A stretch of DNA of 64,000 nucleotides, from NCBI RefSeq assembly GCF_006345805.1, contig NC_043021.1:2790001-2854000 (forward strand). The letters run 5' to 3'. Under the pieces are notes generated by a model. The model was not told the DNA's origin and did no database searches. It worked only from the letters and a program-made list of their open reading frames with translations. Source of the DNA: Octopus sinensis. Taxonomy: Eukaryota. Made by a program: the position numbers and the translations under genes. Positions 29,440 to 54,632 of this stretch are shown here, one piece after another (within the stretch, counting starts at the first letter, position 1; every line of letters starts with the position of its first letter).

Positions 29440-29570
29440 ATGGGTTATTGCGATTTTATTTTGAGTTTAATTTTCGAGTATGATACTCCGAAGATCGTCC
29501 ACATCCACAGTAAGAAAGTCGGCGTCATCAATCGTTTATTACAACTGATTATAATAGGATATATTGTTGG
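29440..29570 (+). CDS. P2X: P2X purinoceptor (P2X4-like), coding exon 1 (N-terminus, TM1)
   Basis: ATG at 29440; MGYCDFILSLIFEYDTPKIVHIHSKKVGVINRLLQLIIIGYIVG with the P2X YxTPK motif and G-x-x-x-R-x-x-Q TM1 signature; ends GG|gtaagt (phase 2). Confidence 0.96.
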
Positions 29571-35711: not shown

Positions 35712-35865
35712 GTATGTTATTATCTACAACAAAGGTTACCAAGAATTTGATTATGTAGTTGGATCTATCAGCACGAAAGTAAAAGGCATTTCTTTGACAA
35801 ACCGAACAATTTTGTCAGACAAACCTGGAATCTGGGATGTGGCAGACTATGTTGTTCCACCTCAG
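35712..35865 (+). CDS. P2X: P2X exon 2
   Basis: ttgacag|G; YVIIYNKGYQEFDYVVGSISTKVKGISLTNRTILSDKPGIWDVADYVVPPQ|gtgaga; KGYQ, ATP-binding TKVKG lysines, WDVADY; 154 nt, phase 2 to 0. Confidence 0.96.
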
Positions 35866-37281: not shown

Positions 37282-37350
37282 GAGAACGGGGCTGTGTTTG
37301 TAATGACCAATGCTGTTATAACTTACAACCAGACTCAAAGGTGTCCCCAG
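37282..37350 (+). CDS. P2X: P2X exon 3
   Basis: ttttacag|ENGAVFVMTNAVITYNQTQRCPQ|gtaagt; FVMTN motif and first ectodomain Cys; 69 nt, phase 0 to 0. Confidence 0.95.
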
Positions 37351-40915: not shown

Positions 40916-40988
40916 GATGTTGCTTCCGGTGACTTTTGTACCTCCGACGCTGACTGCCCAGCTGAAACAAAGATACCAAGTGGCGATG
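40916..40988 (+). CDS. P2X: P2X exon 4 (head domain)
   Basis: ttgcag|DVASGDFCTSDADCPAETKIPSGD-G|gtaagt; C-x-x-D-x-D-C motif; 73 nt, phase 0 to 1. Confidence 0.94.
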
Positions 40989-41561: not shown

Positions 41562-41655
41562 GCTTCAGAACTGGTCTCTGTGTAAACTCTTCCCAAAATG
41601 GCACTAAAGTCTGTGAGATTTATGCCTGGTGTCCATTTGAAAATGATACTTTAAG
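41562..41655 (+). CDS. P2X: P2X exon 5
   Basis: ttttccag|(G)FRTGLCVNSSQNGTKVCEIYAWCPFENDTL(S)|gtaagt; TGxC and CEIxAWCP motifs; 94 nt, phase 1 to 2. Confidence 0.96.
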
Positions 41656-42530: not shown

Positions 42531-42611
42531 TGAGCCCTTACTGAAATCAGCAGCTAATTTCACCATCTTCATCAAGAACAATGTTCATTTCCCTAAATTC
42601 AATGTCTCCAG
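42531..42611 (+). CDS. P2X: P2X exon 6
   Basis: ttgtag|(S)EPLLKSAANFTIFIKNNVHFPKFNVS(R)|gtaaga; NFT-x-x-IKN ATP-site motif; 81 nt, phase 2 to 2. Confidence 0.96.
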
Positions 42612-44078: not shown

Positions 44079-44609
44079 TACAGTAGTGTGTGTGTGTGGG
44101 GGGGGGGGGTTGTCCCCCCTCCACTGCTTGACAACCAGTGTTCAAAACAAACCTCATGGACTTAGTACTAAGCTTTAATAAAATAAGTCCTGGGATTAGT
44201 TTGTTCAACTGAAAAACTCTTCAAGGCGGTGCCCCAGTATGGTCGCAGTAACGAGTAAAAGATCCAGTTTATATTTCAGCATGTCCCAAATAAGCTTCAC
44301 CCCCCCCTTGCCCTATTTTAGCTCAAACCCTTGACCAAGGAGTGTTGTGTTGTTATCCTGTTATTTTGAGATTATAGTCCAGACACTTAACTCTCATATG
44401 AGATAACCTACATTTGAACAAACAGATTATGTAGGAGACAGTGAGGGAGACTTTGTGTGATTGCGGCTGCTGCCAGCGATAATAATCTACTTCCCCTCAA
44501 ATAATACTTTTCCATTATAAAATGTATTGTACTCTTTACTCTCTTCACTCTTTCACTTGTTTCAGTCATTTGACTGCGGCCATGCTGGAGCACCGCCTTT
44601 TAGTCGAGC

Positions 44610-45436
44610 AAATCGACCCCCAGGACTCATTCTTTGTAAGCCTAGTACTTATTCTATCGGTCTCCTATGCTGAACCGCTAAGTTACAGGGACGTAAACAC
44701 ACCAGCATCGGTTGTCAAGCGATGTTGGGAGGACAAACACAGTCGAATCAAATCGACCCCAGGACTTATTCTTTGTAAGCCTAGTACTTATTCTATCGGT
44801 CTCCTATGCTGAACCGCTAAGTTACAGGGCCGTAAACACACCAGCATCGGTTGTCAAGCGATGTTGGGAGGACAAACACAGTCGAATCAAATCGACCCCA
44901 GGACTCATTCTTTGTAAGCCTAGTACTTATTCTATCGGTCCCTTTTGCCGAACCACTAAGTTACAGGGACGTAAACACACCAGCATCGGTTGTCAAGTGA
45001 TGTTGGGAGGACAAACACAGTCGAATCAAATCGACCCCAGGACTTATTCTTTGTAAGCCTAGTACTTATTCTATCGGTCTCCTATGCTGAACCGCTAAGT
45101 TACAGGGCCGTAAACACACCAGCATCGGTTGTCAAGCGATGTTGGGAGGACAAACACAGTCGAATCAAATCGACCCCAGGACTTATTCTTTGTAAGCCTA
45201 GTACTTATTCTATCGGTCTCCTATGCCGAACCGCTAAGTTACAGGGCCGTAAACACACCAGCATCGGTTGTCAAGCGATGTTGGGAGGACAAACACAGTC
45301 GAATCAAATCGACCCCAGGACTCATTCTTTGTAAGCCTAGTACTTATTCTATCGGTCCCTTTTGCCGAACCACTAAGTTACAGGGACGTAAACACACCAG
45401 CATCGGTTGTCAAGCGATGTTGGGAGGACAAACACA
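44610..45436. repeat. 139-bp tandem array (6 units) inside a SINE-A copy
   Basis: aatcgaccccagga...ggacaaacacagtcgaatca repeats starting near 44611, 44751, 44890, 45029, 45168, 45307. Confidence 0.95.
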
Positions 45437-48400
45437 GGCACACAAACATATACACACACATACATACATATATACATATATATGACGGGCTTCTTTCAGT
45501 TTCTGTCTACCAAATCCACTCACAAGGCTTTGGTTGGCCCGAGGCTATAGTAGAAGACACTTGCCCAAGGTGCCACGCTGTGGGAATGAACCTAGAACTA
45601 TGTGGTTGGTAAGCAAGCTACTTACCACACAGCCACTCCTGCGCCTTATCATAAGAATTTTATAGACTTTCAAGAAGACACGAAATAATGCAGCACAGAA
45701 TTTTGTCAGGTCTCATAGCACCATAAATATTTTGGCAAATTAAATTTTAATGTTGAAGAGGATCTAATGGTTTTTGTGTGTTTCTTAAATGGCTTATAAA
45801 CACCTTCCACGCTGCAATTGCTTTTGTTCCAGCACACGATCACAGATCAGGTCTATGTTTGCTGAAGAGTAAAAGTACAGTTTTGTGCTTTTATCAGATC
45901 TTATCAGTAAATGGTCATTCCTCCTCCTCCTCATCATCATCATTTAACGTCCGTTTTCCATGCTGGCATGGGTTAGATGATTCGACTGGGCTCTGGGAAG
46001 CCAGTAGACTGAGACAGGCCCTAATCTGATCTGGCAGTGTTTCTACAGCTGGGTGCCCTTCCTAATGCCAACCCTCTCCAAGAGTGTAGTGGGTGCTTTT
46101 TACATGCCACCGGCACAGGAGCCAGTGGAGCTGGCATCGACCACGATCGGATAGTGCCTTTTACATGCCAGCTGCATGGAAGCCAGTCAAAGTGGCACAG
46201 GCATTGGCCACTTTTAGACGGCGCTTTTAACATGGTATTGGCACGGGGTCACAACTACAATTTCCATTTGATTTGATTTCGATGTTAACGAAGTTGAAAA
46301 ATATAAATCTAAGGCGACATGAACTCTTTGAACTATCAATTTCATTGGTTTATACATTTGAAGAAGATCTTTTGTGTAGAATAATGTGAAATATTTATTT
46401 AGATTTATTAGTTCATAATTGATGTAAATAACTTTCAGATCAATAATTTGTTAATTGAATGAAGAGAAGCCAGTTATGTTTTGATCAATAACAGACCCTG
46501 ATTTATATTGACAATCGATACAGTATTTGGGCTACCGGTGAAAGAATGTCACAGATTGCCGTTGGTTTTCTTAGTTTTCTTCTGTCAGATGTCTAAGAAA
46601 TTACTTTCCATTTGATTATGATGGCAGTTAATCACATGTTTTTATTGGTGATTAAATTTGAACTCACTTCAGCAAGCTACCCTATTTTCTGGCAAACAAG
46701 TTGACATAGAATAAAAGCATAAACCATTCAAACCTCATCACTATCTCTTCAAATCCTGCTGCATTCCTTAGGGAATTTTTGGTCCCCCAAAGTTCTCTTG
46801 GTACATAAATTGATGTAGCATTTATGGCTGTCGATTTTAGTCTGAATGATCTGGCTTGTGTATACAGGCTCAAGAACTGTGGATGAAGTGGACGTGAGGA
46901 CACGCCCTAAAGGTTTTTTTGTTGGGTGGGGGCCATTGGAAACACCTTGAACATCCTGGGTTGAACCTAGGCTTGCATTCTCTAAGCAAATTTCATTCCC
47001 GCACTTCTGCTTGTGCACCAGAAACTACAATAATGAAACAGTTTTAATTAAGAAGCTAATGATCCAGTCTTGTATTTAAATGAACAGGCCGTTTCAGTTT
47101 TATATTTATAAAGAATACATTGTCTGGAATTAAAAGATTTTGCCAAAAACATTGCAAAGGAGGGGTGTCCACCATGGGTAATACTTTTAAGTGGGGGCAG
47201 CACATTTGGATCTGCTATAGTTAATGCCACTGGAGTCAGTGGTAATTTATGAAAATTTAATGTTTAAGATTATAAACCAATATCCTAGTGATAAGACACT
47301 TGTGGAGTGGTTGGCGTTAGGAAGGGCATCCAGCTGTAGAAACACTGCCAGATCAGACTGGAGCCTGGTGCAGCCCCTGGCTTCCCAGACCCCGGTCGAA
47401 CCGTCCAACTCGTGCTAGCGCGGAAAACGGACGTTAAACGATGATGATGATGATGATGATGAAGACAAGATGAATTTCTTTGAAAATCTCTTAAAACACA
47501 ATTTGAATTTCATAACCTTTACATGTTAGAGAAACAGATTTTACAGACTTTGTCTCGATGGAATCTGGTGCAGCTGTGGCCTTGCCAGTTCCTGTTCAGC
47601 TGTCCAACCCATGCCAGCATGGGAAACAGATGTTAAATGATGATGATGATAGGCGCAGGAGTGGCTGTGTGGTTAGTAGCTTGTTTACCAACCACATGGT
47701 TCCGGGTTCAGTCCCACTGCGTGGCACCTTGGGCAAGTGTCTTCTACTATAGCCTCGGGCCGACCAAAGCTTTGTGAGTGGATTTGGTAGACGGAAACTG
47801 AAAGAAGCCCATCGTATATATGTATATATATGTGTGTTTGTGTGTCTGTGTTTGTCCCCCTAGCATTGCTTGATAACCGATGCTGGTGTGTTTATGTCCC
47901 CGTTACTTAGTGGTTTGGCAAAAGAGACCGATAGAATAAGTACTGGGCTTACAAAAGAATAAGTCACGGGGTCGAGTTGCTCGATTAAAGGTGGTGCTCC
48001 AGTATGGCTGCAGTCAAATGACTGAAACAAGTAAAAGAGTATGATGATACGTCTATTTGGCTGAACACATCATTTTTCAGTGGAATCAGATAATTGGTTG
48101 CTGCTGTTTAGGATGCTAATGAATTGGAATGGTTGAGCTTGGATGTAGAATTTATTTTAGCAACAATACATTTTTTGCACTGGAGGCAGAGGCAGACAAT
48201 CACATACGGCACATATGCACACACAGAAATATATACACATACAGTGAGAGAGAAAGCGGGAGAGTGTGGGGGACATTGCAATTAATTAATTGATCACAGT
48301 TGGAATAAACATTTTCTTCTCCTCACAGACATACAGAGAAATATGCTACACACATAAAGTGACAGAGAAAGTGGGGTGGGGGGGAAGAGATGGGGGAAGG

Positions 48401-48944: not shown

Positions 48945-49074
48945 GGTAAATGTTGATTCGAATATGTCCAAAAACTGTACCTATGATCCCCATACTTTGA
49001 AATCCTGCCCCATTTTTCGCATGAGTACCATCACAGACATCATTGGAACACCTTTTAAAAACGTTGCCCTTCAG
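48945..49074 (+). CDS. P2X: P2X exon 7a (dorsal-fin module, alternative copy A)
   Basis: Long T-rich tract then acag|(R)VNVDSNMSKNCTYDPHTLKSCPIFRMSTITDIIGTPFKNVALQ|gtagat; C-x9-CPIFR; 130 nt, phase 2 to 0. Confidence 0.9.
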
Positions 49075-49364
49075 GTAGATAGCACGTTTGTGCCGGACAT
49101 TTATTATTTATAATATTATAATAATCATTAACATTACTATTATCATCATCATCATCACAAAGGTGGTGAGCTGGCAGAATCATTAGCACACCAGGTGAAA
49201 TGCTTAGTGGTATTTCACCTGATGCTACGTTCTGAGTTCAAATTCTGCCTAGGCCGACTTTGCCTTTTGTCCTTTCGAGTTCAGTAAATTGAACACTGGG
49301 GGGGTCAATGTAATTGACTCATCCTCTACCCCAGAATTGCTGCCCTTGTGGCAAAATTTGAAAC

Positions 49365-49415
<51 letters not shown>

Positions 49416-49591
49416 CATCATCGTCATTATCCCTGCTGTACTCTTTCGCCGCAACTTTCTCCCACTTTCTTCTGTTGGCCTGCTCGCTTAACCAGTGGGG
49501 TGGCATCATTTGAAGACTAAAACAATGTGAAGCGCATTGTGATCAGTAATGTGTAGCACATCTGATAGCCTGGTCGGTCACGGTGATCACA

Positions 49592-49646
<55 letters not shown>

Positions 49647-49746
49647 TCTTCTATCTACTGTTTTACTCTTTGTTCTTCTATCTGCAAGTTAATTCCTTTA
49701 CAAACTGTGAATTCCCTGTCAAGAACTTTCATACATACTCACTTTG

Positions 49747-49820
49747 TCTCTGATGATGGAATACCCAGTGTATGGAGATGCTAACCTATCACTTGGGATA
49801 TCCTAGAAACAGCTGTAAGA
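49747..49820 (+). ncRNA. Minimal type I hammerhead ribozyme motif (Penelope-type)
   Basis: TCT-CTGATGA-[TGGAATACCCAGTG...CACTTGGGATATCCTA]-GAAA-CAGCTGT-A-AGA: intact core, palindromic stem III (ACAGCTGT), GUA cleavage triplet, 3-bp stem I; stem II imperfect. Confidence 0.6.
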
Positions 49821-49933
49821 ATCCAATAAGTAATTAATTAATTAATTACTTCAAATTCATCTTACTCTTATTAAATATTCTAAATGACTTGAGACACTCA
49901 TCCTGCTTTGGTTTTTGCCGTCCTTTTCCTCTA

Positions 49934-49989
<56 letters not shown>

Positions 49990-50025
49990 CAAACACATAT
50001 ATACATATACATATATATATATATA

Positions 50026-50266
50026 AAAATACAAAATGGGACAAGAACGCAAAACATTCAAATAGACGACACAAAAAACGGACGGGTCATTCGAAGCCTC
50101 TAATCTTCAGTCAAGAACCGGATCATCCTCACAATAAGATTAATCAGCCGAAATTGTGAGGATGATCCGGTTCTTGACTGAAGATTAGCGGCTTCGAATG
50201 ACCCGTCCGTTTTTTTGTGTCATCTATTTGAATGTTTTGCGTTCTTGTCCCATTTTGTATTTTTAT
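50026..50266. repeat. Fold-back inverted repeat (~110-bp arms, 17-nt loop)
   Basis: aaaatacaaaatgggacaagaacgc...catcctcacaat mirrored by attgtgaggatg...gtcccattttgtatttt. Confidence 0.92.
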
Positions 50267-50318
50267 ATATATTTTTTATACATAAATTATTGCGGCGTAA
50301 CGTACACCTTGTTCTCTT

Positions 50319-50360
<42 letters not shown>

Positions 50361-52689
50361 AATATTAGGGAATAAATCCAAACTTACAGGGAAAAATCAA
50401 ATTTAGGATTGAATCCAATTTTATAGTAAAATATTATATTATATTAAATTAGAGACAAAACCACTATTAGGCAAATCAAACAATGAAAGACTTAAGCCAA
50501 TACATAAATTAATTTATATTATTTAAATATGTAACAATTATTAAAAAAATATAATTAATATCCACTTGATTTGCCTAATAGTGGTTTTGTCTCTAATTTA
50601 ATATATATATATATATATATATATGGATGGATGGATATAAGTTTTTTTGTGAAAATTACTTGATACAATCACAATATTTGAAGAAATATTTTCTTAAAAG
50701 TTATCAAGTGTTTCAAAAATCTTAGTAAAACAGAACAACATGAACCCTTTGGAAGTAAGTCTTCATATTGTGTGTGTAAGCGCTTTCATTGTTAAATTTT
50801 CCAAACACATGTTATAGTCATAATCCATATAAAGGAAGTTGTTTTAAGTAGCAGTGTTGACTATTCCTCGTTTGGTTTCAGACTTAAAATTCTTGCAAAG
50901 TATTCTTCTTTTGATCATTTTCTTCTTTTATTTGAAAAAAAAGGAAATATTTTGAATTTTAAATGTGCACAAATGTCTAAATGAGATTTTTTTTTTGAAT
51001 TGTAAAACAAACAAAAAAAAAAGAATCTGCTGTGGAAAAATCTACCACAACAAATTCCATCTGACCCATGCCAGCATGGAAAAGTAGATGTTAAACGATT
51101 CTGATGATGATGATGATGATGATGATGTAGTAGTAGTAGTAGTAACAACAGCAGTAGTAGTAGTAGTTGTAGTGCAGCTGCTACCCTTAATAATTGCAGT
51201 TCTTTTACAGCTGAGTTGGGTCCTTTCTGAAATCTGAAGAGCCATAAAAAGCTTATCTTCACCTTTGATATTTTTTTTTTATTTTGCTTTTTTTGCCAAA
51301 ATGTGGAATGACAGATACAGTATCTGTAGGGACACAACTGCAAAAGAAATTCTTAGCGAAGAAACCCCTTCCCTCCATCACCTCTCCCCAACCTGCCCAC
51401 TCACCCACACAGACAACCACTTCATTCCTTTTATTAATTGACTTCTAATTAAGCCACAGAAAATATGAGTTCTTTTAATTCCTCTTTTTTTATTCTTTAT
51501 ACATTATTCGGCCCCAGTCCATATGTTTACCATTCCTTCCTCATTTTGACTTTGTTCTTAAGGATTCTTGGTAGTTTCTAAACACCTCGGTTGGAAAAAT
51601 CTCTTTCTTCAGATGAAGGTCCGGTCTTGTAATGTCAGATTCCTCTCCTCACAGCATCCAAACTTAAGAACAAACATTTTTAGTTTGCATCTGTTGATCT
51701 GTAAAATGGTTTTCATAAGAATCTTGTTATGATGTCTGGTGGGGGTAATGATGGTTAGTGCAGGGCATGGAGGAGAGCAGAATATAGAGATAAGAGGAAG
51801 AGAGACAAGTGATGTGGAAGAGGCACAAAGGCAACCAGTGATTCTCAGGGGTCGAGGCTACCGTTGAAATTGTATAAAGCAAGATGTAAGAAATCACACA
51901 TCTGGTGTTTGATGCTGAGAGATTTCATACCAATATGTTGAGTTACCTATTCTTAGATACAGTCTATGATGTCTGTAAATATTGTTACAACACTGCTCAT
52001 GGTTTTGAATGCCATTGTAAAGAGTTGGCACCAGAATGATAACCTGTAGTCTTGGAGGACTGAGAAGGCTTTGAACACAACCCTTTCCTCCAAACCAAAC
52101 CATACTGTCCTCTAAAAAATGTCTTGTAACATTTGTATTAGGCCTGTATATGAATGTTCTTTGAAGAATTCAGTGTCCAAGAAAGGCTTCGGTTCATTAT
52201 AATTCTTGAGACTGTAACATAAGTTAGGAAGTTTCATACACTGATGATCTGATGATTCTCATTGCAGAATCTGTCTGAGTTTCAGAAAAAGATCCTAACC
52301 CAGAAGCAAAATCTAAATCCAAAATAGCTAAACATGAACATGAAGGGCCAAAATGTTGCTTAATTTATGCAAAAAGGATATACAAAAAAGGGAATCTGAC
52401 ACATGTACCTATGAAATTGTCTAAAAGGGACGTCTCTCTTGTGAGTTCAAAGTCAGCAGGGCAGCAATTATTGGAGACAAATTATAGATCAATACTCAAA
52501 CCTGAGGAATATAGATCTTCCAAAAAGCTACATGTTGTAATGTGGCAACCATCAGTTCCATGGTCACATGTGTTTATTGGCCAGTGACTGATTAACTAAC
52601 GACTTAATTATTAGTCTTCTTCTGCCTGATATCTCAGTTATCTTTTAGTGATTTTTTTTTCTTCTCTCACTCTCTCCATCCAATTTCAG

Positions 52690-52843
52690 ACGTAACATAA
52701 TTGGTTTTGAAAATAATCGTCAGCTGATGACCTGCCGTTATGATCCCCGAAATGCTACAAATCGTTTTTGCCCCATCTTTATAATTCAGGATATTTTAGA
52801 CTTAGTAAGAGGCGATGACAGTACCGAAAGCATTCTGAAAATG
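52690..52843 (+). CDS. P2X: P2X exon 7b (dorsal-fin module, alternative copy B)
   Basis: Polypyrimidine tract then tttcag|(R)RNIIGFENNRQLMTCRYDPRNATNRFCPIFIIQDILDLVRGDDSTESILKM|gtaagg; RNI and C-x11-CPIF; 154 nt, phase 2 to 0. Confidence 0.9.
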
Positions 52844-54532: not shown

Positions 54533-54632
54533 NNNNNNNNNNNNNNNNNNNNNNNNNNNNNNNNNNNNNNNNNNNNNNNNNNNNNNNNNNNNNNNNNNNN
54601 NNNNNNNNNNNNNNNNNNNNNNNNNNNNNNNN
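54533..54632. other. Assembly gap (100 N)
   Basis: Run of exactly 100 N, typical of a placeholder gap of unknown size. Confidence 0.99.

Follow-up and report, generated by a model that had tools for sequence, protein, structure and literature searches.

Our analysis of a 64,000-nucleotide (nt) window of Octopus sinensis DNA (RefSeq assembly GCF_006345805.1, contig NC_043021.1, positions 2,790,001 to 2,854,000) leaves little doubt that the P2X receptor gene lying within it carries a real pair of mutually exclusive exons, 7a and 7b. With somewhat better than even confidence, we further favor a model in which these exons are likely the products of one duplication in an ancestral mollusc, the splice choice between them gives subunits that differ only in the dorsal fin of the receptor, and the 7a subunit is the weaker in its response to adenosine triphosphate (ATP). 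The two-form exon 7 is not specific to octopus and is shared with other molluscs.

Evidence for an either-or choice comes from two sister species. The full-length O. bimaculoides isoforms X1 and X2 (RefSeq XP_014779935.1 and XP_014779936.1) differ from each other at residues 202-244 only, as do the full-length O. vulgaris proteins QHX41545.1 (7b) and QHX41546.1 (7a); among our numbered proteins, the difference is confined to the same residues in the pairs P0001/P0006 and P0002/P0003. O. vulgaris also provides assembled transcripts of both kinds, c33163_g11_i2 with 7b and c33163_g11_i3 with 7a, identical outside exon 7 (PMC12919962 Tables S2 and S3). In the samples TIP, SEM, SUB and OL, which we take to be arm tip, supra-oesophageal mass, sub-oesophageal mass and optic lobe, the 7b transcript stands at 2.07, 2.02, 3.16 and 2.01 counts per million (CPM) and the 7a transcript at 2.03, 2.30, 3.42 and 2.20 (PMC12919962). 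Since about 90% of their length is common to both transcripts, shared reads may equalize these values, which therefore indicate presence better than ratio. Between this gene and that of O. bimaculoides, 7a has 4 changes in 43 residues, 7b has 4 in 51 and exons 1-6 have 15 in 201. The similar rates of change argue that neither exon is decaying and, judged from these comparisons, both are under purifying selection. The first-pass annotation of this DNA had proposed that one gene yields two subunit types through an either-or exon, and the sister-species isoforms and transcripts bear this out: both exons are transcribed and conserved, and they lie between identical flanks, not between the different sets of exons that two genes or a misassembly would give.

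The window itself is organized as such a choice would require. Exons 1-6, placed under an AG/GT constraint, amount to 602 coding nt that end at position 42611 in phase 2 and reproduce residues 1-200 of P0004 and P0005. From there the 6>7a and 6>7b joints are both stop-free in the frame of exon 6, and both end in phase 0. Exon 7a is bounded by tacag/G and CAG/gtagat (donor gtagat, polypyrimidine fraction 0.68) and 7b by ttcag/A and ATG/gtaagg (donor gtaagg, polypyrimidine fraction 0.84). The initial description of two paralogous, AG/GT-bounded, stop-free exons of 130 and 154 nt running from phase 2 to phase 0 thus agrees with the sequence, in which 7a and 7b are tandem, homologous and equal in phase, and the immediate stop foreseen on joining 7a to 7b falls at codon 246 of the 6>7a>7b product. 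Searched with a profile of 95 exon-7 peptides, the window and the 120 kilobases (kb) downstream contain exactly two copies (E 2e-17 and 1e-15; next match E 0.86), with no third copy over that span. Over the same range a full-length profile gives one copy of each of exons 1-6, as had been claimed from the absence of any duplicate of them. Each exon-7 peptide, taken alone, matches solved P2X chains; the two are identical at 11 of 43 aligned residues, and their DNA has only scattered short words in common. Identity this low rules them out as alleles or as a duplicate created by the assembly. Two further claims, that skipping both exons shifts the frame and that both continue into a common exon 8, hold for the proteins of the two sister species; neither can be shown in the window, as exon 8 is missing from this assembly.

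By sequence, the gene is a P2X4-like receptor of family PF00864. The sister-species isoforms P0002 and P0003 score 449 and 443 bits against that family over profile positions 1-360. In alignment to the human P2X4 chain 9bqh_A both isoforms have the ten ectodomain cysteines and the KxK, NFT-KN, NFR and K313-equivalent residues, the ATP-site motifs downstream of exon 7 being visible in the sister-species proteins only. The window exons translate to RefSeq proteins labelled Octopus sinensis, and genome searches, whose counts are lower bounds, found one P2X locus only. That locus is broken past 7b. Exons for residues 245-369 of the 395-residue isoform (exons 8-10) were not found in this genome and no downstream exons were found in the 120 kb past the window; when the C-terminal 151 residues were searched against the genome, the last exon was returned, on a small contig (G000:C9176, L021 ~773-844), with one chance-level match (E 6.5). 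Both O. sinensis RefSeq models are truncated, at 303 and 245 residues. With the middle exons missing from the assembly, the common downstream exon therefore rests on the sister species.

Beyond octopus, the forms of exon 7 fall into two classes that we call a and b. In a survey of the best 120 of 1176 homologues together with 20 expanded clusters, at least 22 mollusc species labels have both forms as separate proteins, and these span chiton, gastropods, bivalves and octopods. In 21 of 22 the members of a pair are identical outside exon 7, in a comparison that omitted the last two exon-6 residues; the exception is Lymnaea. Counted over all mollusc labels, both forms occur in 25 of 43, after hand correction of two class labels. 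Queried with 7a, the set of representatives at 50% identity yielded five proteins, each matching over 3-18 stretches at 32-45% identity. Models from Sinanodonta, Batillaria and Mytilus coruscus (P0014, P0015 and P0104) hold both copies in one protein, a always before b; they link the copies via filler residues and are likely annotation errors, useful for the order in which the copies lie. A single form is found in multi-isoform records of Lineus (two genes), Tubulanus, Macrostomum and Ptychodera. Oysters (P0031, P0040, P0061 and P0144-P0146) have class a only, Physella records class b only, and Sepia pharaonis and the squid/cuttlefish-like proteins (P0008, P0009 and P0155-P0162) class b only, in 10 of 10; these ten have S at the position of R203 and, like octopus 7a, are shorter by four residues. 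In oysters class b may have been lost or may lack annotation, the squid/cuttlefish-like pattern is possibly one of convergence or of loss of class a, and all of these single-form records could reflect annotation gaps.

The exon-7 pair is very probably ancient in Mollusca. Its division into two classes across species makes a single ancestral duplication likely, and in a tree of 54 exon-7 peptides over 49 columns, built without an outgroup, a single branch separates class a from class b (support 85/69, unstarred; 89% of 200 bootstrap trees). The tree omitted all 21 outgroup rows and 20 of the 74 from molluscs, namely congeners, near-duplicates and an apparently frameshifted Aplysia record; a sturgeon model without a clean exon-7 segment was skipped from the aligned rows. 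The approximately unbiased (AU) test rejects a lineage-specific duplication in bivalves (p-AU 0.01), gastropods (0.024) and the chiton (0.034), so that these results are best read as one duplication preceding the chiton-conchiferan split; having no outgroup, the tree does not date the event beyond that split. Octopus 7b belongs to class b on its sequence, scoring 59.7 against the b profile and 35.9 against the a profile when cephalopods are left out of both, and bearing the class-b marks of D at 234, an 11-residue cysteine loop and R after the first cysteine. Exon 7a is class-a-like: the same profiles (42.4 for a versus 25.7 for b) and gene order, not the tree, assign it to class a, and it has the class-a T at position 234.

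Exon 7 aligns with human P2X4 R203-E249, a segment that includes C217 and C227, which we take to form a disulfide, and this alignment upholds the earlier placement of the exon in the dorsal fin. In zebrafish P2X4, L217 (human L214) is reported to contact the ribose and I232 (I229) the adenine of the nucleotide, and R206 (R203) to bond to the left flipper (PMC4460280). Of the rat P2X4 mutants, R203A and N204A were described as nearly non-functional, and I205A and L214A shifted the ATP half-maximal effective concentration (EC50) about 10-fold (PMC4232510). Octopus 7b retains the equivalents of R203, N204, I205, L214 and I229. Exon 7a retains N204, both cysteines and I229; positions 203 and 214 hold V and S, and the stretch before the first cysteine is four residues shorter, the register at 214 being that of a sequence alignment anchored on the cysteine. 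Elsewhere in class a, R stands at 203 in 32 of 34 rows and L, F or I at 214 in all 34, and the outgroup rows have R and L at these positions in 21 of 21. Missing the R203 and L214 equivalents and four residues, 7a would be expected to show weaker ATP potency or coupling, and we predict that it is less sensitive to ATP than 7b.

Parts of this picture have precedents in two gastropods, whose orthologues were shown to be ATP-gated channels (PMC3510196, PMC7943599). The cloned Aplysia isoforms AcP2X and AcP2Xb (NP_001191558.1 and NP_001191559.1) were reported to differ in exon 7 only (PMC7943599) and correspond to classes a and b. The accessible part of that paper calls them splice forms with a "147 base deletion/insertion", not tandem paralogous exons, and does not trace them across molluscs. 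The two Aplysia exons are equal in length, unlike those of octopus, where 7a is shorter and lacks the R203 and L214 equivalents. The EC50 given for AcP2X, 306 µM (PMC7943599), is the only published class-a pharmacology. In the record for this isoform (P0125; NP_001191558.1 / AAR28669.1), the 14 residues that open exon 7 match 1 of the 11 columns that do not vary among four related sea slugs, and its +1 frame can match 10 of the 11 (none of 20000 shuffles does so, and 419 other windows reach 6 at best). The +1-frame match points to a compensated frameshift in the record over these residues. As P0125 is the accession behind the published AcP2X pharmacology, a frameshift would bear on the 306 µM value.

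In Lymnaea, a 150-nt, 50-residue difference between the LymP2X clone and a transcriptome contig was noted as "suggesting an alternatively spliced exon" (PMC3510196). Lymnaea class b is 50 residues long, and the clone is presumably AFV69113.1 (class b). Its authors assigned the differing region to the head domain, and the accessible part of their paper does not characterise the second form; they gave an ATP EC50 of 6.2 µM for the cloned receptor (PMC3510196). The resulting 50-fold gap between class a and class b would fit the prediction for 7a, as a cross-species comparison that conflicts with a sentence on the Aplysia isoforms considered below and is clouded by the apparent frameshift. For octopus, databases list the same two proteins as "P2X purinoceptor 4-like" X1 and X2, with no comment on the exon, and the main text of PMC12919962 mentions P2X once. 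Our literature search, which left subscription journals largely outside, did not find the octopus pair, its pan-molluscan age or the loss of the R203 and L214 equivalents in 7a. Already known, then, are the octopus isoforms as database records, the Aplysia exon-7 splice difference and a suspected alternative exon in Lymnaea; new are the breadth and pan-molluscan age of the pair, the degenerate octopus 7a and the doubt on the Aplysia record.

Tandem mutually exclusive exons are found in other ligand-gated channels, including AMPA receptor flip/flop, insect nicotinic acetylcholine receptor (nAChR) alpha6 and Rdl. Like exons 7a and 7b, they are homologous, used one at a time, ancient and tune a channel module, in other channel families. 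The contrast with vertebrates drawn in the first-pass annotation holds within the limits of one check: the accessible part of a catalogue of human tandem-duplicated exons lists no P2RX gene (PMC8373072). Rodent P2X7K differs in kind, being described as the product of an alternative first exon and not of an ectodomain exon (PMC9329894).

We envision that exon 6 would be spliced to 7a or to 7b, likely copies from one tandem duplication in the mollusc ancestor, to give two subunits differing solely in the wall that the dorsal fin contributes to the ATP pocket. Exon 7b is predicted to yield a P2X4-like receptor of low-micromolar ATP potency, and 7a one of lower potency or weaker gating. Because each pocket sits between two subunits, cells making both would be predicted to form mixed trimers with intermediate sites. 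A bolder version, which we put forward tentatively and regard as doubtful, holds that one molluscan P2X gene has carried this dorsal-fin switch since the origin of the phylum, that octopus 7a is of low sensitivity or silent alone, and that the 7a:7b ratio sets sensitivity.

Several points weigh against the model that we favor. Exon 8 is absent from the assembly, and exon usage is known from sister-species records, not from O. sinensis reads. Isoform CPM are near-equal in 4 of 4 tissues and give no sign of a tissue switch. The 245-residue RefSeq model P0005 is the exact 6>7a>7b product, and double inclusion may occur; five acceptors before the assembly gap, that of 7b among them, would yield the P0005 ending, which may reflect real double inclusion or a predictor working without exon 8. 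With regard to age, the branch leading to octopus 7a is long and the one that parts a from b is unstarred, with 49 columns in the alignment, the AU test does not reject an octopod-only (p-AU 0.44) or cephalopod-only (0.30) duplication, and the class labels of Pomacea P0021 and Haliotis P0163 were corrected by hand after misassignment by the seed profile, that of Pomacea after the first tree. With regard to function, the accessible part of the rat study names Arg at 203 for P2X1, P2X4 and P2X7 only (PMC4232510), and the position is Q in scallop class a and S in squid/cuttlefish-like class b, which has the same four-residue shortening. Finally, AcP2Xb currents were described as "very similar" to those of AcP2X but much smaller and unstable, with data not shown (PMC7943599).

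The functional points raise the possibility that the choice is real and ancient but that both forms have similar ATP pharmacology, the copies being kept for glycans, trafficking, pH or metal modulation, or a partner. Consistent with this idea, the Aplysia currents differed in size, position 203 varies in nature, both octopus exons retain N204, the two cysteines and the CPIF core with I229, and there are two N-glycosylation sequons in 7a and one in 7b. However, the class-specific columns fall where rat mutations alter potency, and the Aplysia comparison is a single sentence without data in which the class-a record is apparently frameshifted. We consider similar pharmacology unlikely, while giving it serious weight. 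It is less probable still that the 7a subunit is unable to form a working homomer and only dampens mixed trimers. Exon 7a lacks two residues whose loss cripples rat P2X4 as well as four loop residues, yet it is still conserved (4 of 43 changes) and expressed, and splice forms of P2X7 are reported to act as dominant negatives in heterotrimers (PMC9329894). On the other hand, its cysteines and N204 are intact, and a similarly shortened form is the only one found in squid/cuttlefish-like animals (10 proteins) and therefore presumably works.

The AU results for octopods and cephalopods would also accommodate a later duplication of octopus's own, convergent with the pair in other molluscs, as would the finding of no class-a form in Argonauta (1 protein) or among the 10 squid/cuttlefish-like proteins. 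We regard this as highly improbable: 7b falls together with the class-b forms of every other mollusc, 7a gains 17 bits on the class-a profile and carries the class-a T at 234, the a-then-b order is that of three non-cephalopod gene models, and a separate origin requires that an old a copy was lost and a new one arose at the same place. An assembly artefact, two genes or a decayed exon has next to no chance of being correct in spite of the break after 7b, as the genome search gives a single P2X locus, 7a and 7b are too divergent for alleles, and the transcripts behind the full-length isoform pairs, with identical flanks in two sister species, refute it.

How one exon is chosen over the other can be narrowed from the sequence around them. 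The intron between 7a and 7b is 3615 nt long and both exons are GT-AG; steric block between the copies is excluded by that length. No specific docking/selector pairing was found in this one genome, where 898 inverted repeats were counted, the 25 longest of them belonging to dispersed or simple repeats. Exon 7b has a stronger-looking donor and pyrimidine tract than 7a, and double inclusion is unproductive by frame. The simplest account would be that exclusivity arises through competition between the splice sites of 7a and 7b, with double-inclusion and double-skip products probably removed by nonsense-mediated decay. Intron 6 also contains six tandem copies of a 139-base-pair unit of a dispersed repeat (44602-45437, 95% match), and an inverted copy of this repeat lies near 47650-48040.

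Table 1. Exons of the octopus P2X gene and the assembly gap, in window coordinates (TM1, first transmembrane segment)
Feature	Position	Strand	Basis
Exon 1, coding part: start codon, YDTPK motif, TM1	29440..29570	+	AG/GT-constrained splice, tblastn
Exon 2: STKVKG, two ATP-binding lysines	35712..35865	+	tblastn, splice
Exon 3	37282..37350	+	tblastn, splice
Exon 4: head domain	40916..40988	+	tblastn, splice
Exon 5: head domain, WCP	41562..41655	+	tblastn, splice
Exon 6: NFTxxxKN, phase 2 end, donor common to 7a and 7b	42531..42611	+	splice
Exon 7a: 130 nt, 43 residues, class-a-like	48945..49074	+	in P0002, P0005, P0006
Exon 7b: 154 nt, 51 residues, class b	52690..52843	+	in P0001, P0003, P0004
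Assembly gap, 100 N, 1.7 kb past 7b	54533..54632	.	sequence

The exon-7 pair amounts to a natural domain swap, with subunits identical save for 43-51 residues in at least 22 species. The dorsal fin couples ATP binding to gating, and the pair makes its share in ATP potency testable. The apparent frameshift in the Aplysia class-a record casts doubt on the only published class-a pharmacology. The octopus P2X has been selected as a candidate in nociception (PMC12919962), and which isoform is meant therefore matters there. More broadly, the pair shows a route to more varied purinergic signalling in animals that have just one P2X gene and, if the bolder version of our model is true, it would be a splice-encoded stand-in, acting via mixed trimers, for the seven-gene P2X family of vertebrates.

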